This document shows, in pieces, positions 375 through 22,235 of a DNA stretch of 32,000 nt. Made by a program: the position numbers and the translations under genes. The stretch lies in assembly GCF_000010625.1 (NCBI RefSeq), contig NC_010296.1, forward strand, positions 30,001 through 62,000, in the 5' to 3' direction. Origin of the DNA: Microcystis aeruginosa NIES-843 (GTDB taxonomy: Bacteria > Cyanobacteriota > Cyanobacteriia > Cyanobacteriales > Microcystaceae). How positions within the stretch are numbered: the first letter of the stretch is position 1; each line of letters starts with the position of its first letter. The notes beneath the pieces are model-generated. The model did not search any database. It saw only the letters and a list, made by a program, of their open reading frames with translations, and had not been told where the DNA came from.

Positions 375-608
375 TTATTTTTGCAAAATTTCTCTCTTTT
401 TATTTATTTCAGGCTCAGGTAAAGATTCTCCTAATTTCTGATAAAGTTCCATCAGAGATTCTAGGACTTCTTCAGCATTTTTCACTGATTCAGCATAAGT
501 ACTACCATGAGTTCGCCATTTTTGACCTGGAAAGTCGGGTAAGCCAACTAGATAACAATTGTCTTCATCAGACCACTGAATCACTATTCTATATTTAAGT
601 TTTTTCAT
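375..608 (-). CDS. hicB: HicB-family antitoxin
   Basis: MKKLKYRIVIQWSDEDNCYLVGLPDFPG...AEEVLESL matches the HicB N-terminal fold signature. I prefer the internal ATG at 608 because it overlaps the reconstructed hicA stop. Confidence 0.7.
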   Translation of the reverse strand: MKKLKYRIVIQWSDEDNCYLVGLPDFPGQKWRTHGSTYAESVKNAEEVLESLMELYQKLGESLPEPEINKKREILQK

Positions 609-649
609 CTTCTTTTCTCCTGACCTCTTCAATGGCATTTTTGACTTCT

Positions 650-2071
650 GGCTCTTCGTTACCCTTTATGCTAAATCAACATACAAGATGCCAAGATAAC
701 ATACTTCTAACCCAAAAATTCCGAAAGTTTCTAAAGCCATAGCCTCTCCGTTTTATTAGTTTAAGTTTATTGTTGATTCCCTCGACCACCCCATTCGTTG
801 TCCTTCGCTCGAAATAACTAATTATTTCTCCAAACCAGTTTCGGATTGTTTGACAACTCTTGGTAAAAACACTGGAGGATTTTGCCAACCATTCCGAGAT
901 GGATAGCATTCCCTCTGTCGGATTCTCTGAGGTTTCATAAATCTTTCTAAATTCTTCCTTTAATTCCTGCATCTTTTTCAAATTTGGGAATTTTTCTTTG
1001 ATAGCTTCTAGTTTAATTTTTTGGGGTTCCGTTAAATCTTCTTCATTTTTTAACAGGCTATATTTACTTCGCTTTAAAACTTCTAGCTTCGCTTCTTTTT
1101 CCGCTTTCTGTTTTTTATTTTTCTGCGCTTCTACGGCTCTTTTTTCTGCTCTTCTCTGTTCGTCTAACTCTTGATTAATTTGTTTCATTACATGGAATCT
1201 ATCGGCGACTACTTCGGCCGATGGCATCAATTCTTTCACCAAATTTTTATAAGGCAACCAAAGGTCTATGCTCACTTCTTCAATTTGCTCTAACACCTCT
1301 TTTCCCCAGCCCGTAAGCGTTTCTCTCAACTCTTCTTGTGTTCGCTTCTCTAGAATAGCTATTAGTTTTCCCGTATCTAAATTTACTAAAACCGCACAGT
1401 AATTTTTTTGTCCTTTGACTAGAGCGATTTCATCAATTCCTAGTCTTTTTAATTCCGATAGGTCTGGCTCTGTAATTTCTTCGGCGATGTCCTCTATCAT
1501 TCTTTGAATCTCTTCTTCCGTTACGTCATTTATTCGACTAACATTTAAAATATCTCCTTCTTTTAATTGTTCGAGTATATTTGCGGCTAGTCTTTTCGTA
1601 TAGGTTCGTTTCTTGGCGACAAAATCTAACTCTTCGCTCAAGGGTCTCTGACAATTATCGCACTTAAATTGACGACGATTAATTTGTAGGTATACTGGTT
1701 GACCTGAGATTGGTAAATCTTTGACTAAATGTCGATGATTTTGGTGGAGTTTATCGCTCTCTAACCCACAACGAGGACAGGTTGCTTTTTGATTTTTCGA
1801 TTCGATTCGGCAAACTATACCGATATTTTCTAGGTGTAGATAGCCTTGAATACAGGTTCCTTTTAGGTTCAAAAATTTGTCAAGTATCATAAGTAAAATA
1901 ATCTCGTTTTTGGCTATTATATCAAATCTTAACTCAATTGTCTATCTTTTGGTATTAACCTGTTTGTGCCTTAAGTCCTTCCCTGTATGGATTTCAGCTA
2001 CTTTTGAGCGTAGGCGCTCTCATCGAATTTTATTTTAAGTTAATTATTTGCATAACAATTCCCGAAGAGCC
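650..2071 (-). mobile_element. ISL3-family insertion sequence (1422 bp)
   Basis: Terminal inverted repeats are GGCTCTTCG..TTATGC at 650 and its complement ending at 2071. A perfect 8-bp target-site duplication TGACTTCT sits at 642-649 and 2072-2079. Confidence 0.9.
676..1890 (-). CDS. ISL3 family transposase
   Basis: A 404-aa ORF with an N-terminal Cys-rich zinc finger (CPRCG...CDNC) and an ISL3-type DDE region. It lies inside the IR/TSD-bounded element. Confidence 0.9.
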   Translation of the reverse strand: MILDKFLNLKGTCIQGYLHLENIGIVCRIESKNQKATCPRCGLESDKLHQNHRHLVKDLPISGQPVYLQINRRQFKCDNCQRPLSEELDFVAKKRTYTKRLAANILEQLKEGDILNVSRINDVTEEEIQRMIEDIAEEITEPDLSELKRLGIDEIALVKGQKNYCAVLVNLDTGKLIAILEKRTQEELRETLTGWGKEVLEQIEEVSIDLWLPYKNLVKELMPSAEVVADRFHVMKQINQELDEQRRAEKRAVEAQKNKKQKAEKEAKLEVLKRSKYSLLKNEEDLTEPQKIKLEAIKEKFPNLKKMQELKEEFRKIYETSENPTEGMLSISEWLAKSSSVFTKSCQTIRNWFGEIISYFERRTTNGVVEGINNKLKLIKRRGYGFRNFRNFWVRSMLSWHLVC

Positions 2072-2285
2072 TGACTTCTTGTTCTTGGTAACGTTTAGCA
2101 TCCGCTCCGTCTTTTCCCGAGAGAGTGATTTTCCCTGCATATAGAGGGTGTAACCAATGGTTGTGACTGCCTTTTCCCGGAAAATCAATAAATCCAGCTT
2201 TTTTGAGCATTTGTTTCAATTCTCTGATTTTTTTGGCATCAGTCAAGATTTGATCGATCAGGTAATTTGCTGGGGGGTGTGACAA
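2040..2285 (-). CDS. hicA: HicA-family toxin whose last ~10 codons are supplied by the ISL3 terminus
   Basis: KKAGFIDFPGKGSHNHWLHP...GKDGADAKRYQ is a HicA motif. The native sequence ends at 2072, where the IS begins. TTG start. Confidence 0.7.
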   Translation of the reverse strand: MSHPPANYLIDQILTDAKKIRELKQMLKKAGFIDFPGKGSHNHWLHPLYAGKITLSGKDGADAKRYQEQEVRLFGNCYANN

Positions 2286-2419: not shown

Positions 2420-2457
2420 AGAGAATTTTCTTCCGGAAATTTAAGCTGATCAGAGCT

Positions 2458-2518
2458 AAACTTAACAAAACTTCACAAAAACTTCACAAAAACTTCACAA
2501 AAACTTCACGGAAAACTA
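2458..2518 (+). repeat. Five phased ~11-bp A-tract repeats (CTTCACAAAAA and variants)
   Basis: Tandem units read directly from the sequence, immediately 5' of the TTGACG hexamer. Confidence 0.8.
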
Positions 2519-2552
2519 TTGACGAGAAGATGTCAAGGCCGCTTAATTAAAT
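2519..2552 (+). promoter_or_regulatory. Putative promoter of precursor gene 1
   Basis: TTGACG is a -35-like hexamer. An AT-rich TTAATTAAATTAATTAA block 17-19 nt downstream offers several -10 candidates. TTGAC/GTCAA inverted repeat. GGAGGA RBS at 2567-2572. Confidence 0.35.
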
Positions 2553-2580
2553 TAATTAACATCATTGGAGGATTTACCCC

Positions 2581-2766
2581 ATGAAAACCAAAAAACTGAC
2601 ACCCCGCAATGCTGCTCCTGTGCAACGGAAAAATACCGCTACCGTCTCTCGTGATGGCAATGCGATCATTCAACTTGATTGGGGAACTTTTTGTGTGCAA
2701 GAGGATGGGGAGGGAAATTGTAAAGAGTGGTACGAACTGCCGTTTGCGGGAGACGACGCAGAGTAA
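2581..2766 (+). CDS. pirE: Cyanobactin precursor peptide 1 (PirE/AcyE-like), 61 aa
   Basis: MKTKKLTPRNAAPVQRKNTATVSRDGNAI leader, then a variable region ending in Pro, then the C-terminal FAGDDAE macrocyclisation signal. A strong RBS precedes it. Confidence 0.85.
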   Translation: MKTKKLTPRNAAPVQRKNTATVSRDGNAIIQLDWGTFCVQEDGEGNCKEWYELPFAGDDAE

Positions 2767-2855
2767 TCTGCCCGATTCTAGCACGAACCTCAAATCAGGT
2801 CAAAAGTCTTTTTCTCCTTGCCAAGGCGCACGGTTGCTTCCTTGTAATTGACGGT

Positions 2856-3057: not shown

Positions 3058-3342
3058 ATGAACACTATCCAACTGACACCAGAAATAGAAGATTTGATTG
3101 CTCAACAAATTAAAACAGGAAAATATCAAGATGATTTAGCCGTTATTCAAGAGGGATTGCGTTTATTGGCAGAAAGAGACAGAATTTACCGAGGAAGATT
3201 TGAAGAATTGAAACGGGAAGTTATGATTGGCGTTGAGGAATTAAGACGACAGGAAGGAATTAATGCCGAAGAGGTTTTTTCAGAATTAGAAGAGGATTTA
3301 CAACAAATAGAGGCTAAGGGTTTCCCGATGAGTCAGAAATAA
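3058..3342 (+). CDS. parD: ParD-like antitoxin
   Basis: 94 aa, with MNTIQLTPEIEDLIAQQIKTGKYQ...GLRLL typical of ParD. Its stop overlaps the start of the ParE gene (ATAATG). Confidence 0.7.
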   Translation: MNTIQLTPEIEDLIAQQIKTGKYQDDLAVIQEGLRLLAERDRIYRGRFEELKREVMIGVEELRRQEGINAEEVFSELEEDLQQIEAKGFPMSQK

Positions 3343-3638
3343 TGTCAAAGATTATTTTCTCACCCTCAGCTAGATTGGATTTAAAGCAAGTTAATAGTTA
3401 CTTGGCTGGGAAAAATCCGCAAGCTGCTAGAATTTTAAAAGAAAAAATCCAACAGGCTTGTAAAAAATTAGCTAAATTCCCCAATCTGGGACGTAGGCGC
3501 GATGAGTTAATCCCTAGATTACGAAGTTTTCCAGTAGAAGATTATCTGATATTTTATTTCCCTCTTGAAAACGGAATTGAAATCGCAAGAGTAGTCAGTG
3601 GATATAGAGATTTAGATGCTATGTTTGATGTTGATTAA
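3342..3638 (+). CDS. parE: RelE/ParE-family toxin
   Basis: 98 aa, with FSPSARLDL...FPNLGRRRDEL...YLIFYFPLENGIEIARVVSG typical of ParE. Confidence 0.75.
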   Translation: MSKIIFSPSARLDLKQVNSYLAGKNPQAARILKEKIQQACKKLAKFPNLGRRRDELIPRLRSFPVEDYLIFYFPLENGIEIARVVSGYRDLDAMFDVD

Positions 3639-3728
3639 GAAAGCGATCGCATCAATCTAAGGGTGTCATTCTTCCCTGCTACCCAGTAGCATCGGCTGGG
3701 GGTTTCTTCGGGAAATTTAAGCTGATCT

Positions 3729-3779
3729 AAACTTAACAAAAACTCAACAAAAACTTCACAAAAACTTCACAAAAAACTA
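3729..3779 (+). repeat. Four phased ~11-bp A-tract repeats
   Basis: CTTAACAAAAA, CTCAACAAAAA, CTTCACAAAAA, CTTCACAAAAAA, directly 5' of TTGACA. Confidence 0.8.
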
Positions 3780-3814
3780 TTGACAAGAAGATGTCAAGGC
3801 CGGTTAATTAAATT
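3780..3814 (+). promoter_or_regulatory. Putative promoter/operator of precursor gene 2
   Basis: Perfect palindrome TTGACA-AGAAGA-TGTCAA (3780-3797), followed by the TTAATTAAATTAATTAA block. GGAG RBS at 3828. Confidence 0.35.
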
Positions 3815-3841
3815 AATTAACATCATTGGAGCATTTACCCC

Positions 3842-3997
3842 ATGAAAACCAAAAAACTGACACCCCGCAATGCTGCTCCTGTCCAACGGGAAAACACCGC
3901 TACCGTCTCTCGTGATGGCAATGCGATTGCGATGATCGCTCCGCTTTGGGATTTGGTAAGGTGGGGCGCTCCTTTTGCGGGAGACGACGCAGAGTAA
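3842..3997 (+). CDS. pirE: Cyanobactin precursor peptide 2, 51 aa (absent from the ORF track)
   Basis: Hand translation: MKTKKLTPRNAAPVQRENTATVSRDGNAIAMIAPLWDLVRWGAPFAGDDAE. The leader differs from copy 1 at one residue. Confidence 0.85.
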   Translation: MKTKKLTPRNAAPVQRENTATVSRDGNAIAMIAPLWDLVRWGAPFAGDDAE

Positions 3998-4124
3998 TCC
4001 CCCTGATTCTAGCACGAACCTCAAATCAGGTCAAAAGTCTTTTTCTCCTTGCCAAGGCGCACGGTTAGCCTCAAGGAATTGACGTACAACCCTAGTTAAT
4101 TCGGGAGTTTCGGATACCGGGCAC

Positions 4125-4188
4125 GGAGAAGAAGCACCGGGGGCAGGGAAGCAGTTTCTCTTCTCGGTTCCCCTTTTCCTTGACTCAC
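4125..4188 (+). repeat. Purine/pyrimidine-tract element, copy c
   Basis: Homologous to copies a and b. Followed by TTGACT-N17-TTAGGT. Confidence 0.6.
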
Positions 4189-5211: not shown

Positions 5212-6108
5212 ATGATAGTTGCTGACATTCAAAAAAGCTCCCTCAAAGAGCAAAGGCTACAATTTATTCGTAACCATCAACAAGCTTTCGATGTTGAGCC
5301 GATTTATCCTCTACGGCTGTTTGAAGATTTCGTGATGGGGGTTGAGGGCGATTGTACTATTCAAGCCTCTTGTAAGATAGAATTAGATCAACTCATTGCC
5401 TCAAGGTTTATGCTCTTTTTTAAAGATAAAGCTCAAGAATGGCAAAACTATCTAGCGCAGTCTTTAGCTTTTTTTCGGCAAGTTGAAAACCGAGTTGGTG
5501 TTAAATTAGACTATTCTTTATTACAGCAGTTCTTAGGACTTAATTTTAATTTCAGTAAAATCACGGTTTTCAGTACGGGTATTGATTTAAGGACTAATCT
5601 TGCTGATTCTAGTTTAAAAATGCACATCAGGCTAAAAGATTATCCTGAAAAAATCAACCAAGCGTTATTGTTAACCAGTGATAGTGATGATTTAATAGCT
5701 GTACGAGATTTTCTTTCCATTGTCGGCTTTGATTTCTATTTTGATGGCCGTAGTGCGATCAAAATTTACCCTGAAGTTGCAGAAACAGACTTTTTTAAAC
5801 CAGAAACTCAAGACAAAGTATGGCGACATCTTCCCAAATTTGTTTTAGAACCTCTTAAAGCAACAAGCTTATTTGGTTTTGGCTTTTCCAAAACAAATAA
5901 TAACCCAGTGCTTTACTACAGGCTCAAAAATCGTCAAGATTTAACCAATTACTTCAAGCTTAATGATACCGCCCAAAGAGTTCATAGCTTTTATCAGCAT
6001 CAAGATATTTTATCTAGTGTGTGGTTAGGTACAGCCCAACAAGAATTAGAAAAAACGAGAATTGAAAATGTTAGACTTTACTATTATAAACTCTTTGGTA
6101 AATTGTAG
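5212..6108 (+). CDS. pirF: Cyanobactin prenyltransferase (PatF/LynF/TruF family, ABBA fold)
   Basis: RLQFIRNHQQAFDVEPIYPLRLFEDFVMGVEGDCTIQASCKIE aligns with recalled PatF (RLQFVRTHQEAFDVKPTFPLPLFEE...EGSCSVESSCQVE). Similar length, 298 aa. Confidence 0.85.
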   Translation: MIVADIQKSSLKEQRLQFIRNHQQAFDVEPIYPLRLFEDFVMGVEGDCTIQASCKIELDQLIASRFMLFFKDKAQEWQNYLAQSLAFFRQVENRVGVKLDYSLLQQFLGLNFNFSKITVFSTGIDLRTNLADSSLKMHIRLKDYPEKINQALLLTSDSDDLIAVRDFLSIVGFDFYFDGRSAIKIYPEVAETDFFKPETQDKVWRHLPKFVLEPLKATSLFGFGFSKTNNNPVLYYRLKNRQDLTNYFKLNDTAQRVHSFYQHQDILSSVWLGTAQQELEKTRIENVRLYYYKLFGKL

Positions 6109-8279: not shown

Positions 8280-8625
8280 TTTTATCGGTTAACCCAAGAA
8301 TTAAAAAATGATGAACGGCTTAACTATTCCCGGATTAAAAGAACTACAAAAACAAACGAAAGGCGCATCAGAAATAACCGTCGCCATTCTTGATGGTGTA
8401 GTTGATACCGACCATCCCTGCTTCAATGGGGCAGACCTAACCCGTTTACCCACCCTCGTCCAGCATCAAGCCACCGCGGGGCAAATGTCCACTCACGGAA
8501 CCCATATTGCCAGCCTCATCTTCGCACAACCCAATAGCGACATCCAAGGTATTGCCCCCCAGTGTCGAGGCCTACTCGTACCCGTCTTCTCCGACGATAA
8601 CCGTAAACTCTCCCAACTCGATTTA
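8222..8625 (+). repeat. 404-bp direct repeat, left copy (Uma2 3' end + intergenic + first 106 codons of pirA)
   Basis: Matches 13087-13489, with one indel in an A-run and a few substitutions. Confidence 0.9.
8308..8625 (+). pseudogene. pirA: Orphan 5' fragment of the PatA-type protease gene, truncated by an IS
   Basis: Identical over 106 aa to the start of 13172..14089. After 8625 the ORF reads into the IS terminus (LDFGQRKTDL...). Confidence 0.85.
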
Positions 8626-13086: not shown

Positions 13087-13489
13087 AAAATCTCCTGGAT
13101 TCAAAGAATTAAACTTAAAGGTTTTTGATGTATTTAATTCTTAATTTTATCGGTTAACCCAAGAATTAAAAATGATGAACGGCTTAACTATTCCCGGATT
13201 AAAAGAACTACAAAAACAAACGAAAGGCGCATCAGAAATAACCGTCGCCATTCTCGATGGTGTAGTTGATACCGACCATCCCTGCTTCAACGGGGCAGAC
13301 CTAACCCGTTTACCCACCCTCGTCCAGCATCAAGCCACCGCCGGGCAAATGTCCACCCACGGAACCCATATTGCCAGCCTCATCTTCGCACAACCCAATA
13401 GCGACATCCAAGGTATTGCCCCCCAGTGTCGAGGCCTACTCGTACCCGTCTTCTCCGACGATAACCGTAAACTCTCCCAACTCGATTTA
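13087..13489 (+). repeat. Direct repeat, right copy (403 bp)
   Basis: See 8222-8625. Confidence 0.9.
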
Positions 13490-14037
13490 GCGAGGGCGAT
13501 TGAACAAGCCGCCGAAAAAGGGGCAAAAGTGATTAATATTAGCGGCGGGACCCTCACTGATATGGGAGAAGCCGAAGACTGGCTAATTCGTGCCGTCGAG
13601 ATGTGTAACGAGAGAAATATTCTTCTCGTTGCTGCTGCTGGCAATGATGGCTGTGAATGCCTCCAAGTTCCAGCAGCCCTTCCCGCCGTCCTCGCGGTGG
13701 GTGCTGTTGATGCTAGAGGCCATCCCCTCGACTTTAGTAATTGGGGGGAAACCTACCAAAGCCAAGGCATCCTTGCCCCTGGAGAAAACATCTTAGGGGC
13801 AAAACCCGGAGGCGGGACTGTGCAACTGAGTGGGACCAGCTTCGCCGCGCCCATTGTGGCCGGAGTAGCCGCCTTATTACTCAGCTTGCAGGTGCAGCGG
13901 GGAGAAACCCCCAATCCTCACGCAGTCCGGGAGGCAATACTAAAAAGCGCCCTCCCCTGCCAATATGCAGACAGCGAAAATGAACCAAAATGTTTAGCCG
14001 GAGTATTGAACATTTCTGGGGCAATTAAACAACTAAT
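13172..14037 (+). pseudogene. pirA: PatA-type cyanobactin N-terminal protease, subtilisin domain (5' part of the interrupted gene)
   Basis: Catalytic triad contexts AILDGVVD, HGTHIASL and GTSFAAP. Long collinear match to recalled PatA (GIAPQCRGL.VP.FSDD...QLDLAR.IE...INISGG...LLVAAAGN.GC.CL.VPAALPAVLAVGA). Confidence 0.9.
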
Positions 14038-14224
14038 GGGACTTAAACGCCAAATAAAGATCAAATCGAGTATAATCGTTAAAGAGTAAGCACTTTACGT
14101 TGAAAGATCAGCGATGAAAGAGACAACCCCAGCCGCGATGCCCCCATGCTTTGACCGATGGTGTCGGCGGTTTGACAATTGCTTCAAAAACGAAGCGCAA
14201 AAAAACGGCTTCAGACAATATTTA

Positions 14225-15222
14225 GGGTCTGCTGAAAAAGTTTTTCCTAGGGGCAGGGTGTAGGGTGTGGGGTGTGGTGCGATTCGTTGGCTAGAAACTA
14301 GACAGTAAGACGTTTAGAGGATTAGCCGCTTGGTAAATGTAGTACCTTGATAACTTTATAACCCTACAGGTGCGGGTTAGTAATAACCTTAGTCCTGTCC
14401 TCTAGATGCCTAGAGTGACGGCATTTCCTGCTGCTTTAGACTTGGTACATCTGAGGTAGTGAGCGAGGAAAAAAAAGCGGTATCTGATAGCCTAAATCAG
14501 AAACCCGTTGAGCCAGAACCTATGGATAGCCCTGGGGCGAAGATACGAATTAACCATCGTCAACACCCACGAGCCAAAAGGCTGACAGGCTCGAAACAAA
14601 AGTTAACAGAGTTGGGGCTGATAGCTCATACCACTATCAGTAAGGCATTCCCGTTACTCTGTTGTGGACAGTATCATCCTAAGGGTTCAACCAATGGTTA
14701 TAGGGAACGAAGTAACCCTGATTGACTCTGCCCGTTCGGGGCAGTAGGAAACCATCCGCAAGTCAATAGAGGGAGAGGATGTCCTTAAAAGCCAAGGCTT
14801 TGAGTAATATCAAAGATATGCTGACAAAGGACGGGTAACTAGGAAGTCTAAGCAACAATCAACGGTCATATACGCCCTAAAACCAACAATCTTGTCTGGT
14901 GGGGATACAGCCAAGAGGGTTGAATAGACAAGGAAATAATAATTCCCATTATTATTCTACTAATGACAGTAGCCTAGTTACTCAGGAGCCGGATACGGCG
15001 AAAGTCGTAAGTCCGGTTTTGAAGCAGGGGGTGGGAAGGCGACTTCCTGCTCTACTGTAACGGGTGTGGGGTTTGACCGATTTTGAGGGGGTCAATTACC
15101 TAATTTTCAGGGAAAAAGTCCCTGAATTTACCCCTGATCACTCCCATATCTGGTACTTTTTGAGGGGAAAAAAGTCCAAAAGTCTTATCCAACAAGGTTT
15201 TTAGATTTATTCAGCCAGCCCT
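14225..15222 (+). mobile_element. MITE (about 213 bp) carrying a group II intron
   Basis: Ends GGGTCTGCTGAA ... TTCAGCCAGCCCT. 5-bp TSD ATTTA (14220-14224 and 15223-15227). Same family as 27072-27496. Confidence 0.75.
14277..15061 (+). ncRNA. ORF-less group II intron (785 nt)
   Basis: 5' GUGCG. Domain V at 14986-15019 (GAGCCGGAUACGGCGAAAGUCGUAAGUCCGGUUU) has the AGC triad, a 2-nt bulge and a GAAA loop. Domain VI has a bulged A 7 nt upstream of the last intron nucleotide. The EBS1 loop CAUACC (14627-14632) and EBS2 ACACCC (14563-14568) complement the 5' exon GGGUGU-G-GGUGUG. Confidence 0.8.
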
Positions 15223-16404
15223 ATTTAGGAGGATTATTAGGGGAAAGTGAGAGGAAAAACCTCACTCAAATGGCCAATAATGCCGTCGGAGTAGTTTATA
15301 ACCGATTACATCACTTTTTGACCGAATCTCCCTGGTCAGACCGTCAGGTGAATGAATGTCGGTTGCAAGTGATGAACCAATGCCGCCAGACGCAAATCCC
15401 CCGAGGATTTTCCCTGATTGTCGATGACTCAGGACATCGAAAAAGTGGCAATCTGACCGCCGGAGTTGGCAGGCAGTACCTAGGAGAAATTGGCAAGACA
15501 GACAACGGAATAGTCGCCGTCACTACCCATCTCTACGACGGCAAAAAAAGTGTCCCCCTAGACATTGAAATTTATCAACCGGCTAGTTCCTTAGCCGAGG
15601 GGAAAGAAGACAAAGAATTTAAGAAGAAACCAGAGATAGCGATAGATTTAATTGACCGGAGCTTAACCAGAGGCTATCGACCGAAAATCGTCTTAATAGA
15701 TGCTGGTTATGGCAACAACACAAATTTTCTCAAAGCCCTGGAAGAAAGAAAGCTAAAATACTTAGGAGGATTGGCAAAAAATCGAAAAGTAATTATTGAA
15801 AAAGAAGGGGGTGTGGAAGAAACAATCCAGCTTGAGCAACTAGCAAAAAGCCTATCAGAAAAGGATTGGGAGAAAATCACCCTAAATCTAGATAAAGAAA
15901 AAACGGTTTGGGTAGCGGTATTCAGAGCGAAAATATCTCAACTAGAAGGAGAAAGGAACTTGGCGATCGTCATGAATGCAAGTTCAATGGAAAAAGCCAC
16001 AGAGGTGGACTATTTCATCACCAATGTAGTTGAGGCAGATACAGTAACAGCTTCGTGGATAGTGAGGACTTACACCGAAAGAAATTGGGTGGAAGTATTC
16101 TACCGAGAAGCCAAAGGATGGTTAGGGTTAAGGGAATATCAAGTCAGGGATAAACGAAGCTTACTTCGTCATTTTATCCTGGTGTTTTGTGCCTATACAT
16201 TTATCCTGTGGCATAAGTTAACTGGGGGATTGCAAAGGCAGTGGGCGAATCGACCTTTAAACACTTTTGTGGAAGCCTTGGAAGCTTTTCGGACAGCGAT
16301 GTCTTTCCGTTTCTTTGAGTGGCTGACCGAGAATCGGGATGTGTTTGCCGCTTACAAAGCCAGTTTAGGCTTTGTTTGGGCTTGAAATTTGTTTAAGTCC
16401 CAAT

Positions 16405-17488
16405 AACAGGAGAAACCATGTCCGAATCTGTGGAAACCCAAGCAACAGTAGAAGCATCAGGCTGTGGCTGCGGTGGTACGCCCGAAACCCCTGAGGCTGA
16501 ACGCCAAAAACTCGAACTGAGTGCCGCAACTAGCGCACCGGTAATTCCCGTCGCCCAAATTCCCAATCCTGTCATCACCTCTCAAGGAGTATCTATGCCC
16601 GAAACCACTAATAAATCTGTTACCCCTAGCCAAGCTGCTGAACCTGCTGGCGGAATCGTCTATGCCATTGGCAGCTTGGGCTATGACTTCGGCTCCGAAG
16701 CCCGTCGGGACACATTTAAACAACTGATGCCGACAGCGGTAATTGGTGGTATTGAAGTTCCCTCTAATCCCTACGATGCCCGTCAGATGGTGGATTACCT
16801 GGCTGACAACCTCTCGGAAGCTAAATCCTTAATTTGGACCCTGAACCTGGAACTTACGCCAATTTACGCCATTGAACCCCTTGGCTCTTTTTCCCGCGAA
16901 GTTTATGCGGCTTTACAGGAACTTCTTTCGGGACAAGTGCAAGCAGAAGACAGCCCCGAATATATCCAGCGTGTTAGTATTCCTGGACGGATTACTGGAC
17001 GAACAGTACGCCTGTTCTCAGGACAAGTTGTTCCCGTCATTGAACCGGATAGCCCCCGGGGAATTTATGGTTGGCACGTTAATACTTTAGTCAGTGCGGC
17101 AATCGAAGCTGTTGGTGCAGAACAAACAGAAGCCCAAGAAAGCCAAATGCGCCGCACTTTGAGTAGTTTCCTCAACCGCATCTACTACGATTTACGCAAT
17201 TTAGGGCAAACTTCCCAAGACCGCGCCCTCAATTTTGCTGCGACTAACGCTTTCCAAGCAGCGCAAACTTTTTCTGAGGCTGTGGGTGCGGGGATGGAAC
17301 TCGATAGTATTAATGTTTCTAAGAGTCCTTTCTGTCGGCTGGATAGCGATTGTTGGGACGTACAGTTAAAATTCTTCGACCCGGAAAATAGCCGCCGCGC
17401 TCGTAAAGTCTTCCGTTTTACCATTGATGTCAGTGATTTAATTCCTGTCACCTTGGGCGAAGTTCGTTCCTGGTCTTCTCCTTATTAG
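16405..17488 (+). pseudogene. pirA: PatA-type protease, linker and C-terminal PatA/PatG DUF domain (3' part of the interrupted gene)
   Basis: VYAIGSLGYDFGSEARRDTFKQLMP...FRFTIDVSD...VTLGEVRSW is paralogous to the pirG C-terminus. It is in frame with 13172-14037 after IS excision. Confidence 0.85.
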
Positions 17489-17524: not shown

Positions 17525-17586
17525 GGCGAAGCATTCGGATAGGAAATCTAAGGTTTCAGCGATAGGTTATGCCCGAATGCTTCGCC
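17525..17586 (+). promoter_or_regulatory. 14-bp perfect inverted repeat (GGCGAAGCATTCGG / CCGAATGCTTCGCC) with a 34-nt loop, spanning the pirB start
   Basis: Read directly from the sequence. The 3' arm covers codons 2-6 of the ORF starting at 17569. Confidence 0.5.
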
Positions 17587-17826
17587 CCTACCCCCATTAT
17601 TTACCCCAAAACAACCGTGAGACTTCCCAAACAATCTGCTCCCGTCAAACGACCCCATTTTATTCATCCCCATGAATGCGTCGATATTGTTCATGGAGAT
17701 GGCGAAGACTTGGTATCTATCCTGGTGAAGTTGGTTCATGGAGCTAACTACAATGATCCGGCTCAGTTTCAATACCCTCACTATGGCTATCTGAAAATGT
17801 CCTCTTTTGGCGGTTTTCGTTATTAG
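17569..17826 (+). CDS. pirB: PatB-like conserved cyanobactin-cluster protein
   Basis: 85 aa, positioned directly after the patA homologue. The HECVDIVHG...LVHGANYNDP...KMSSFGGFR motifs match recalled PatB/AcyB proteins. Confidence 0.6.
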   Translation: MPECFAPTPIIYPKTTVRLPKQSAPVKRPHFIHPHECVDIVHGDGEDLVSILVKLVHGANYNDPAQFQYPHYGYLKMSSFGGFRY

Positions 17827-17949: not shown

Positions 17950-18909
17950 ATGACGGCAATTCCTGTTGATTTAGTCATTGTGATTGATACCAGTGTCTCC
18001 GTTAAAGCGGAGGCCGAAGGATTGAGTCAGGCGGCGGAAACGGCGATCGCCAACGCCCGTTCTCACTGTCCCTCAGACCTGCGAGTGATCTGGCTGGGGA
18101 TCGAAGGAACCTGGAAAAACACCCAATTTGAGCGCACAGTTCGAGACTATCTAAGCAAAACCTGTGCCATTCCCGAATCAGCCTTAAAAAGCCGAAAAAA
18201 AGGTGAACTCCCATCAGGGGGAGCCCAGGAAGATGCGGCGCGGGTGATGCAAGATCTTGCCACTCATTTTGATTGGCGGACTGGGGCGAAAAGGGCGATT
18301 TTTTATCTAGGAGATGAAGCCTTAGATGCAGGCGGGGACAAAACCCTTGCCAAGGATATTGAAGCCGCTAACCAGGCGATTCAAGGAGCTAAAACGGCGC
18401 AAGTGATCATTCATACCTATTGTGGTCAATCTAAAAGTCGCTATCGTCACACGATTGAAGCTGAATATGCTCGCGTCGCCCAAGAAACTGGGGGTCAATC
18501 TTTCACCGCTGAAGGTTCTCTCAGGGATTTTGCCACGGTTCTCGAACAAATCATTTGTGGGAGTCAATCTCTTCCTCAAATCCCCTTAACCGAACCGCAG
18601 AACAACGATACGCCAACAACTGCTTTAGCAACTGACGGCGATCCACAACCTGTATTACAACAAACTCATGGAGAGCATCAAACTATGTCTAAATCCAAAG
18701 ATTCTACAGAATCAGCAGCCGCTGCTGCGAATGTTACTCAACCCACCCCAGAAAAACCCAAGACTGACCAACCAGAAACAACTGAACCTAAAACTAAATA
18801 CATTCCCGCCACTGGTTTAGAAGATTACGGACGCTGGAAAACCATGTTCAAAGACCGCAAGGCGAATCCCAATGATCCGCCGTTTCGTCGGGGTCGAATC
18901 TGGTCTTAA
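17950..18909 (+). CDS. VWA-domain protein with a PatC-like C-terminal tail
   Basis: N-terminal DLVIVIDTSVSV (DxSxS MIDAS-like) ... AIFYLGDEA. A Pro/Thr-rich linker. The C-terminus TGLEDYGRWKTMFKD...PPFRRGRIWS resembles PatC-family proteins and sits in the patC position. Confidence 0.55.
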   Translation: MTAIPVDLVIVIDTSVSVKAEAEGLSQAAETAIANARSHCPSDLRVIWLGIEGTWKNTQFERTVRDYLSKTCAIPESALKSRKKGELPSGGAQEDAARVMQDLATHFDWRTGAKRAIFYLGDEALDAGGDKTLAKDIEAANQAIQGAKTAQVIIHTYCGQSKSRYRHTIEAEYARVAQETGGQSFTAEGSLRDFATVLEQIICGSQSLPQIPLTEPQNNDTPTTALATDGDPQPVLQQTHGEHQTMSKSKDSTESAAAAANVTQPTPEKPKTDQPETTEPKTKYIPATGLEDYGRWKTMFKDRKANPNDPPFRRGRIWS

Positions 18910-19053: not shown

Positions 19054-19209
19054 ATGAAAACCCCAAAACTGACCCCTCGCATTACCGCCCCGGTTCAACG
19101 AGACAATATCAGTACCGTTCCTAGTGATGGTAATGTGATTACCCCTGCTACCTTCTGTGATTTAGCCACCAAGCAATGTTATCCCTTTGCGGGTGACGAC
19201 GCAGTGTAA
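19054..19209 (+). CDS. pirE: Cyanobactin precursor peptide 3, 51 aa (absent from the ORF track)
   Basis: Hand translation: MKTPKLTPRITAPVQRDNISTVPSDGNVITPATFCDLATKQCYPFAGDDAV. GGAG RBS upstream. Confidence 0.85.
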   Translation: MKTPKLTPRITAPVQRDNISTVPSDGNVITPATFCDLATKQCYPFAGDDAV

Positions 19210-20139: not shown

Positions 20140-22235
20140 ATGCCTGATCTCAATGCTATCCCCGGAATGACCGCTCTTCGCTCCCAGACAAAAGGCGATC
20201 CACGCATCAAAATCGCCGTTCTTGATGGACCGATTGACTTAGATTGCGCCTGCTTTCAAGGAGCAAATATTACCCGCCTTGATCCCTATTGGTCGCAAGA
20301 ATTTCCCATCGATCCGCAACACTTACAAGCCTTTTTAGATGTAGAAAAAAGTGCCAAAAGTGATGAAGAAAAAGGTGATATGTTGAAAGAAGCGATTCCC
20401 GATGAAAACATCCTCCAGAGTTTGCATTTGCGCTTCCATGCTAACCATATTATCAGCACCATTTGCGGCCAGCCAGATTCACCTGTAGAAGGGATTGCTC
20501 CTAACGCTACTGTAATTAATATTCCCATCGCCTATAGCAACGAAGATTTTATTAATCCCCTCAATCTTTCTCGCGCAATTAGTACCGCTATTGAACAGGG
20601 AGTTAATATTATCCATTGTGCCGCTTGTCATCCAACTCAAAGCGGATAGCTCACGAATTTATTGATAAAGCAATTCGTCAAGCTCAAGCTAATAATATCC
20701 TGGTGATTGCCCCCGGAGGTAATGATAAGGGAGAGTGTTGGTGTGTTCCTGCGGTATTAGAAAATGTCCTGGCGGTGGGAGCGATGAAAGATACAGGCGA
20801 GCCATTTAAATTTAGTAATTTTGGTGGTAAATATGCAACTCAAGGGATTCTCGCTCCAGGAGAGAATATTTTAGGCGCTCAACCCGCAACTGATGACCCC
20901 ATTCGCAAAAAAGGGACTAGCTGCGCCGCTCCCATTGTGACAGGAACAGCCGCTTTATTGATGAGTTTACAATTAGAACAGGGTTTATCTCCTGATGCTG
21001 AAGCAGTAAGGGCCGCCTTGATTAATAGTGCCATCCCCTGCGATCCTAATGAAGTAGAAGAACCAGAACGCTGTTTATTAGGAAAAATTAATATTGCGGG
21101 TGCTTATGAACTGCTGACGGGAGAGAAATTACAAACTGTTGAAGCGGATAACAATTTGTCGAATAATATCATAGAATCGGCGGTAATTCCGATGACAGTG
21201 ACAACCTCGGTTATCCCATCTAATACAACCGAGATGGCGACTCAGGGAATAACTATAACCCCCCCAACAGCAGCGACAATAGAACTGGCGATCGCTCCTA
21301 GCAATGCTTCAGAAAATGTTTCCTCAACTGGATTAATACAAAATAATCAAACAAATAAAAATATTGTCTTTAATAGTGTCGTTCCTAGTCAACGTTCAAA
21401 CCTCGTTTATGTGTTAGGAACTTTAGGTTATGACTTCGGAACAGAAGCGCGTCGGGACACCTTTAAACAATTAATGCCAAGCATCACGATCGATAATCTT
21501 GAATTACCATCCAATCCCTACGATGCGCGGCAAATGGTAGATTATTTAGAAAGTAATCTATCAGAAACTAAGTCTTTAATTTGGACAGTCAATTTAGAAC
21601 TAACTCCCATATATGCGATTAAACCAGTGGGAGCTTTTGCCGCCGACATTTATCAAGTCATCCAATATATGTTAGCGGGTCAAATATTACCAGAATCTGA
21701 CGAAGATTATGTGGAAAGGGTGAGTATCCCCGGTATGCTGACCGAGGAAACTGTGAAACTTTTTTCTGGTCAAATTGTTCCCGTCATCAAGGTTAATAGT
21801 CCCAGGGGAATGTATGGCTGGAAAGTTAATACTTTGATTGAATCAGCGCTAGAAACTGTTAGCGCAGAACATGAAATCGCCGATGAAGCGAGGATGCGGC
21901 GTTCTCTGACCAGTTTCTTGAATCGCATTTATTATGACTTACGCAATGTCGGACAAATCGCCCGGGATCGCGCTTTAAATTTTGCAGCTACTAACGCTTT
22001 TCAAGCTGTACAAACCTTCTCCCAAGCAGTAGCGCTGGGAATGGAACTACACAGCATTGAAGTGGAAAAAAGCCCTTTTTGTCGCTATGGTAGTGAATGC
22101 TGGGATGTGAAATTAAAATTCTTCGATCCCGAAAATGGTCTGCGGGCCAAACGAGTTTTTCGCTTTACCATTGATGTCAGCGATCGCACCCCTGTAACTT
22201 TAGGTGAAGTGCGTTCTTGGGCTGTTTCTAAATAG
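20140..22235 (+). pseudogene. pirG: PatG-type cyanobactin macrocyclase (subtilisin + capping insert + C-terminal DUF), no oxidase domain, 1-nt frameshift near 20645
   Basis: Two overlapping ORFs, 20140-20649 and 20616-22235. HCAACHPTQSG* continues in the -1 frame as IAHEFIDKAIRQAQANNILVIAPGGN...GTSCAAP. This matches recalled PatG (NIIHCAFCRPTQTSEGEEILVQAIKK...). Confidence 0.85.

Follow-up and report, generated by a model that had tools for sequence, protein, structure and literature searches.

The open reading frame pirE1 is a true cyanobactin precursor gene of the PirE/AcyE type, the first of three in the piricyclamide (pir) cluster of Microcystis aeruginosa NIES-843. It is highly probable that its product is built from a 32-residue leader, a 22-residue core and the C-terminal sequence FAGDDAE. 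Maturation would be expected in strains with working enzymes but is impossible in NIES-843. The 22-mer and the double-cysteine pattern are already known. Leikoski et al. listed the 22-mer in Tables 1 and 3 of their 2012 paper (PLoS One 7:e43002, PMC3428304), for NIES-843 and SYKE864, as a hypothetical disulfide piricyclamide. The whole stretch of DNA analysed here, 32,000 nucleotides, is called the window.

The pirE1 Gene and Its Precursor

Profile-HMM comparison assigned pirE1 to TIGR04446 pren_cyc_PirE (84.0 bits, cut-off 35, E = 6.5e-24) and to PF19158 (31.5 bits, cut-off 25), which bears out the preliminary description of a PirE/AcyE-type precursor at this place. All three precursor ORFs of the window reached 84–86 bits with TIGR04446 at the same cut-off of 35. 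The leader motif KKxxxPxxxxPVxR, as defined in PMC3428304, is present in pirE1 as MKTKKLTPRNAAPVQR. The C-terminus reads ...YELP-FAGDDAE-stop, and the precursor holds a single core without an internal Pro or a second FAGD. At the DNA level the motif FAGDDA(E/V)-stop occurs in three copies in the window, where chance alone would give 0. The features of the cluster are collected in Table 1.

Table 1. Features of the pir cluster in the window. Positions count from the first nucleotide of the window.
Feature	Position	Strand	Remarks
pirE1 5' cassette part	2457..2580	+	tandem ~11-nt AAAACTTCACA repeats, TTGAC(G/A) -35-like box, GGAG ribosome-binding site; putative promoter
pirE1 ORF, ATG to stop	2581..2766	+	encodes MKTKKLTPRNAAPVQRKNTATVSRDGNAIIQLDWGTFCVQEDGEGNCKEWYELPFAGDDAE, 61 aa
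pirE1 leader, residues 1-32	2581..2676	+	KKLTPRNAAPVQR motif; predicted PirA cut after ...DGNAI-IQL
pirE1 core, 22 codons	2677..2742	+	DWGTFCVQEDGEGNCKEWYELP, Cys6 and Cys15
pirE1 C-terminal recognition sequence FAGDDAE and stop	2743..2766	+	RSIII, bound by the PirG macrocyclase
pirE1 cassette 3' flank, conserved	2767..2853	+	repeat D3, 89% identity to the pirE2 3' flank
parD/parE-type toxin-antitoxin pair	3058..3638	+	between pirE1 and pirE2
pirE2 precursor	3842..3997	+	published predicted core APLWDLVRWGAP
pirF	5212..6108	+	intact prenyltransferase, LynF/TruF/PatF family
pirA duplicated N-terminal fragment	8308..8625	+	residues 1-105; remnant from the first IS insertion
First insertion, mobile DNA ("IS1" in PMC3428304)	8626..13086		two DDE transposase genes, 404-bp duplication flanking
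pirA protease domain	13172..14041	+	residues 1-289; cut short by IS2
Second insertion ("IS2", about 2.37 kb)	14037..16400		carries a DDE_5 transposase gene
pirA C-terminal part	16403..17488	+	residues 287-647; PatG_D and PatG_C domains
pirB	17569..17826	+	PatB/AcyB/McaB family
pirC	17950..18909	+	319-aa fusion; VWA-like N-terminal part, PatC/TenC/TruC domain at residues 288-319
pirE3 precursor	19054..19209	+	core TFCDLATKQCYP, identical to a verified disulfide piricyclamide of PCC 7005
pirG, C-terminal protease/macrocyclase	20140..22235	+	1-bp deletion between 20646 and 20647 (gene position ~507/508)

Six residues of the pirE1 core are acidic; it also has two Trp, one Tyr and a Cys pair at i and i+9, and our recount agrees with the composition described before. 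For a cyclic 22-mer with one disulfide we computed M = 2584.03, [M+H]+ 2585.04 and a net charge of -5. The published core DWGTFCVQEDGEGNCK(E/G)WYELP of NIES-843 and SYKE864 (PMC3428304) represents the same gene, locus and core, and the version in Table 3 of that paper equals the window 22-mer. Their Table 1 prints ...GNCKGWYELP, while the genome and their Table 3 read ...GNCKEWYELP; the KGW is probably a typographical error.

Position of the Core

The preliminary description had placed the core directly after DGN(A/V)I, at the point where the three paralogues stop being alike, and had thus obtained a 25-residue core for pirE1 and 15-residue cores for its siblings, a sensible choice given no more than three atypical paralogues. 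We investigated this boundary in a wider set. Searching the database gave 339 relatives, almost all of them Microcystis sequences; 127 unique precursors were compared. The three positions after DGNAI are occupied by A (84%), P (80%) and L (44%), respectively, so they belong to a conserved leader. Full precursors could be recovered for four LC-MS-verified piricyclamides of PMC3428304, and the products of all four (TFCDLATKQCYP, WILLADGTRPKNAP, GTHLYTITP and SQWGWRGLSDP) begin at the fourth position after DGN(A/V)I. Family-wide, cleavage therefore lies three residues past DGN(A/V)I.

Because the positions +1 to +3 are conserved leader across the family and every one of the four products begins at +4, the pirE1 core is most probably DWGTFCVQEDGEGNCKEWYELP, 22 residues long. 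The 25-mer described before equals the published 22-mer with IQL, three leader residues, in front of it. For pirE2 and pirE3 the +4 rule gives sibling cores of 12 residues instead of 15, and they are the same cores as in PMC3428304. The family alignment thus moves the protease site further downstream than DGN(A/V)I and shortens the core. What stands of the earlier boundary is that it correctly marks where the DNA of pirE1 and pirE2 ceases to be identical; it does not mark the site of the protease. The methodological lesson is that a conservation boundary among three paralogues is not equal to a protease site.

A cut by PirA in pirE1 itself, after IQL, is a strong extrapolation from these relatives. 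Leucine is the commonest P1 residue in the family, and P1 of pirE1 would be Leu32. However, all verified substrates have A/T-P at P3-P2, where the long precursor has IQ (AQ in other alleles); the cut is an extrapolation because the Pro shared by those substrates is missing. The same gap, together with the fact that DNA and protein identity between pirE1 and pirE2 ends exactly past DGNAI, could be taken to mean that the family rule is unproven for the long precursor and that PirA cuts right after DGNAI, releasing the 25-mer IQLDWGTFCVQEDGEGNCKEWYELP (coded from 2668) and 15-mers from the siblings; this is very improbable, since the products and the family leader both point to +4 and since the sibling core of pirE3 is experimentally the 12-mer TFCDLATKQCYP, not the 15-mer TPATFCDLATKQCYP, having been detected, found to be disulfide-bridged and expressed heterologously (PMC3428304).

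Damage to the Cluster in NIES-843

The cluster is 19,655 bp long, counted from where pirE1 begins (2581) to where pirG ends (22235). Leikoski et al. described the inactive NIES-843 pir cluster as "19 655 bp from 32581-52235", with a pirG frameshift at position 508, one IS that has a 404-bp duplication on its flanks, and another IS, 2367 bp long (PMC3428304). The span, the pirG frameshift, the 404-bp duplication and the second insertion in the window all agree with this account. A 45-nt sequence across the pirA/IS2 junction had no match in the species-representative genomes, so the assignment to NIES-843 (almost certainly AP009552, positions ~30001-62000) rests on these shared coordinates and lesions. 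The lesions of pirA and pirG were mapped by comparison with intact relatives, in which pirA residues 1-105 aligned to 8311..8625, residues 1-289 to 13175..14041 and residues 287-647 to 16403..17485. The second pirA insertion measures about 2364 bp plus a 3-bp repeat, in agreement with 2367 bp. At the first insertion, about 4461 bp lie between the duplicated pirA segments here, versus 4361 bp in PMC3428304.

By family, the gene set is complete: PatA/PatG-type proteases, a PatF-type prenyltransferase and homologues of PatB and PatC are all encoded, with pirA and pirG disrupted. PirG has only S8, PatG_D and PatG_C domains and no oxidase domain. With pirA interrupted by two IS insertions and pirG frameshifted, pirE1 cannot be processed in NIES-843, and the authors found no piricyclamide product in this strain (PMC3428304). 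The preliminary description had counted evidence of a copy that is never processed as an objection to its reading; such evidence was obtained for NIES-843 only.

The last 74 residues of the window PirC align to the 73-aa PirC of locus L016, and the N-terminal ~245 residues are VWA-like (weak TIGR03436 match, DTSVS motif). The same fusion is found in loci L009-L012, L027 and L028; other strains have a short PirC.

Distribution and Alleles of the Long Precursor

The identical pirE1 precursor is widespread in Microcystis. In the collection, the 61-aa protein is indexed in 257 blocks, and it was observed on 153 contigs. A search of the GTDB species representatives for the core DNA gave matches in Microcystis only, apart from one contig (L032, JBIPMW010000445.1). 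This contig, 5.9 kb long and assigned to a Crocinitomicaceae MAG, contains the long-core precursor sequence of Microcystis at 533-589 and is probably a binning contaminant. In the bloom clones of PMC3428304 the long 22-mer core was represented by 21 of 122.

Six protein alleles of the long core were collected, some of them from Table 1 of PMC3428304: ...QEDGEGNCKEWYELP, ...NCQEW..., ...EDREGNCKEWYEVP, ...EDGEGNCKEWYEVP, ...VGEDGNGNCEEW... and GWGTFCVGEDGDGNCEEW.... They agree at 16 of the 22 core positions, among which are both Cys and the terminal Pro. The frame, the start codon, the ribosome-binding site and FAGDDAE are intact in 29 of 29 long-precursor copies. Differences in the leader are mostly synonymous, up to ~7-10 among alleles. 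In the core, about 7 non-synonymous and 2-3 synonymous sites were counted in 10 DNA haplotypes, and with so few sites this dN/dS-style count gave no clear signal of purifying selection.

We also compared core lengths in the 127 unique precursors. They range from 7 to 19 residues and then jump to 22, a class that consists of the long two-Cys alleles and of the metagenome protein P0026, whose 22-residue core INSPSLLTELWAQWAQEALGFP has no Cys. Because the P0026 core is unrelated, 22 residues, the top of the length range, has been reached twice independently. Two longer candidates were parsing artefacts and were discarded: a 27-aa core (P0041) came from an internal leader duplication, and a 25-aa core (P0019) from a mis-anchored regular expression.

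The long precursor is the first cluster gene in every locus, and in most related loci a ParE_toxin gene with a small upstream partner lies directly 3' of it. Across L009-L028 and the window, the first (long two-Cys) and last (TFCDLAT(K/R/Q)QCYP) precursors are conserved, and both carry two cysteines. Between them stand one to three middle precursor cassettes with unrelated cores in nearly every strain.

Decay of the pir cluster is common in Microcystis. In about half of all clusters examined pirA is disrupted. The pirF gene is absent, with a Y1 transposase remnant in its place, in L001, L009, L015, L018, L027 and L028, which carry the long precursor.

Comparison with Known Cyanobactins

Characterised cyanobactins have 6-20 residues (review PMC4663559). 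The pirE1 core falls outside this range, and the preliminary expectation of a core at or beyond the known upper size holds even for the shortened core, which exceeds it slightly. No cyanobactin of more than 20 residues is reported in the searchable (non-subscription) literature. The double-cysteine precursors of PMC3428304 have cores from 12 to 22 residues.

The nearest verified relative is PirE4 of PCC 7005, with the core TFCDLATKQCYP. It shares with pirE1 the precursor family, the RSIII FAGDDA-, a two-Cys core and a loop that starts with T-F-C. Its disulfide and head-to-tail cyclisation are verified and it has been produced heterologously, whereas the pirE1 product is known from the gene alone. 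Furthermore, its core has 12 residues and net charge 0, compared with 22 residues and -5 in pirE1. The disulfide-bridged peptide TLGCMNGTERCLGLP of Izancya 36/41 co-occurs with the long-core allele …EWYEVP. It has 15 residues and was detected (m/z 1544), while the long core is present there only as a gene. Our computed [M+H]+ of 1544.70 for cyclo-TLGCMNGTERCLGLP with a disulfide agrees with the published m/z 1544 (PMC3428304).

The anacyclamides of Anabaena (AcyE/AcyA/AcyG) resemble the pir system in TIGR04446, in FAGDDAE, in the lack of a heterocyclase and in optional prenylation or geranylation. Unlike it, they have one precursor gene per cluster, no reported disulfide members and a maximum of 20 residues, against the predicted 22. 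The authors of PMC3428304 also drew an analogy to plant cyclotides, which are likewise head-to-tail cyclic, disulfide-stabilised and ribosomal. However, cyclotides have 28-37 residues and a three-disulfide knot, are made by asparaginyl endopeptidases, and are unrelated in sequence and biosynthesis.

Proposed Maturation in Strains with Working Enzymes

In a strain with a working cluster, subtilisin-like PirA would cut after Leu32 and remove the leader, as homology with the pat, acy and pir pathways suggests. PirG would recognise Pro-FAGDDAE, cut between Pro54 and Phe55 via an acyl-enzyme, and transamidate Pro to Asp1 of the core to give a head-to-tail macrocycle of 22 residues. Cys6 and Cys15 would be oxidised to a disulfide, as in the verified 12- and 15-mers, and Tyr19 may be O-geranylated by PirF. 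Macrocyclisation of the 22-mer, its disulfide and its geranylation are thus all three predictions.

The two modifications had been anticipated. The verified disulfide piricyclamides of 12 and 15 residues support a bridge between the two Cys as probable, and prenylation is possible in that a PatF-type prenyltransferase, pirF, is encoded nearby and intact. The window PirF aligned over its full length to the PirF geranyltransferase of PCC 7005 (6PGM; E = 3.8e-167). Like the latter, it carries Gly where PagF has Phe222, the residue which switches donor preference from C5 to C10. Tyr19 is a candidate geranylation site because PirF geranylates Tyr in very diverse contexts; the PCC 7005 disulfide 12-mer, which contains a Tyr, is not geranylated (PMC3428304).

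We propose tentatively, at somewhat less than even odds, that strains with intact pirA, pirG and pirF mature a 22-residue cyclic, disulfide-bridged, strongly anionic and possibly Tyr-geranylated peptide, which has been overlooked in blooms. An intact 647-aa pirA lies beside the long precursor in L010, L012, L013, L016 and L026, and each of these five also has a pirF-family gene. In L012, L013 and L016 a pirG of 698 aa was called; the L010 and L026 loci end before pirG. Verified piricyclamides carry D/E residues, even D at P2 (PMC3428304), and rings as large as 20 residues are made by the homologous Acy enzymes.

The 22-mer may instead be a dead end, an allele that is matured in no strain, a poor substrate of PirA and PirG that hitch-hikes at the cluster's stable 5' edge. 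This is rather unlikely, though a serious possibility. Poor processing could result from the non-canonical IQL/AQL site, from the six acidic residues and from the oversized ring; the related macrocyclase PagG rejects acidic residues, Asp or Glu not having been tolerated in a short core. About half of the carrier clusters have a broken or missing pirA beside the long precursor (the window, L009, L011, L014, L015, L018 and L019-L022), and most core substitutions of the alleles are non-synonymous, dN being roughly the same as dS. Against these points, the invariance of 16 core positions has persisted despite the ~7-10 synonymous differences in the leader, and all the copies have kept frame, start, ribosome-binding site and FAGDDAE.

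The detection record has also been open to this interpretation. The long core has been met only as a gene in every strain, although other piricyclamides were detected in four of them, Izancya 36/41, SYKE864 and SYKE764 (PMC3428304). A later report of the 22-mer peptide was not found in the searchable (non-subscription) literature, recent Microcystis metabolomics included. However, the 2012 MS scan was limited to m/z 300-2200, and by its authors' own account candidates above m/z 2000 are hard to detect (PMC3428304). Because the predicted ion at m/z 2585.04 lies beyond this range and the net charge is -5, the non-detection of the 22-mer is uninformative.

It is also conceivable, but improbable, that the precursor is processed to something other than a simple 22-residue ring, such as a linear, N-terminally ragged or otherwise modified peptide. 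The authors of PMC3428304 noted that undetected piricyclamides might bear other modifications, linear cyanobactins exist (PMC4663559), and pirC is fused to a VWA-like domain in this lineage. However, the window and the related loci examined encode no more than the usual A, B, C, F and G genes, with no heterocyclase (YcaO-type), oxidase or methyltransferase in any pir cluster, and the terminal Pro and FAGDDAE, which are needed for macrocyclisation, are strictly conserved.

If the proposed 22-residue cyclic peptide is made, it would be the largest cyanobactin macrocycle and widespread in blooms, missed since its mass of 2584 Da and its charge escape the usual positive-mode cyanopeptide screens. 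The natural ring limit of PatG-type macrocyclases would rise from 20 to 22 residues, and a cyclotide-like, disulfide-stapled, highly acidic cyanobactin would be common in bloom-forming Microcystis. Production of the 22-mer would be a modest extension of the 2012 hypothesis.

Duplicated Precursor Cassettes and Neighbouring Sequences

The precursor cassettes of pirE1 and pirE2 have duplicated flanks, ~93% identical on the 5' side and ~89% on the 3' side. The 5' regions form the direct repeat D1 (2457-2666 versus 3718-3927, 93% identity). Identity stops after the DGNAI codons and restarts at the FAGDDAE codons. A promoter role of the 5' cassette part is suggested by its sequence. A promoter/terminator scan of the region gave counts not above those of shuffles, and it did not call the TTGAC(G/A) box that precedes the precursors.

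The pirE2 precursor reads DGNAI-AMI-APL-WDLVRWGAP, in which the A-P-L leader tail of the family stands three residues further on. The fixed-distance rule gives the published 12-mer APLWDLVRWGAP, a peptide never detected; reading AMI as if inserted would give an alternative 9-mer core, WDLVRWGAP. Precursors with DGNAMIAPS..., akin to pirE2, are P0028 and P0085.

A conserved promoter-like TTGACC-17-TAGAAT with an upstream TG (10 of 12 matches) runs antisense into the 3' ends of pirE1 and pirE2, at 2803..2775 and 4034..4006 on the minus strand. Each precursor cassette is bracketed by copies of a G-rich repeat of ~72 nt that ends in CCCCTTTTCCTTGA(C/T)TCAC (2347-2418, 2866-2937 and 4117-4188), and tandem ~11-nt AAAACTTCACA repeats lie just 5' of the putative promoter of each precursor. 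Both kinds of repeat may mediate cassette duplication or exchange.

Directly upstream of pirE1, a hicA/hicB toxin-antitoxin pair (375..2285, minus strand) is split by an ISL3-family transposase gene, with hicB at 375..638, the transposase at 676..1890 and hicA at 2040..2285. In L011 and L015, hicB and hicA are adjacent and overlap.
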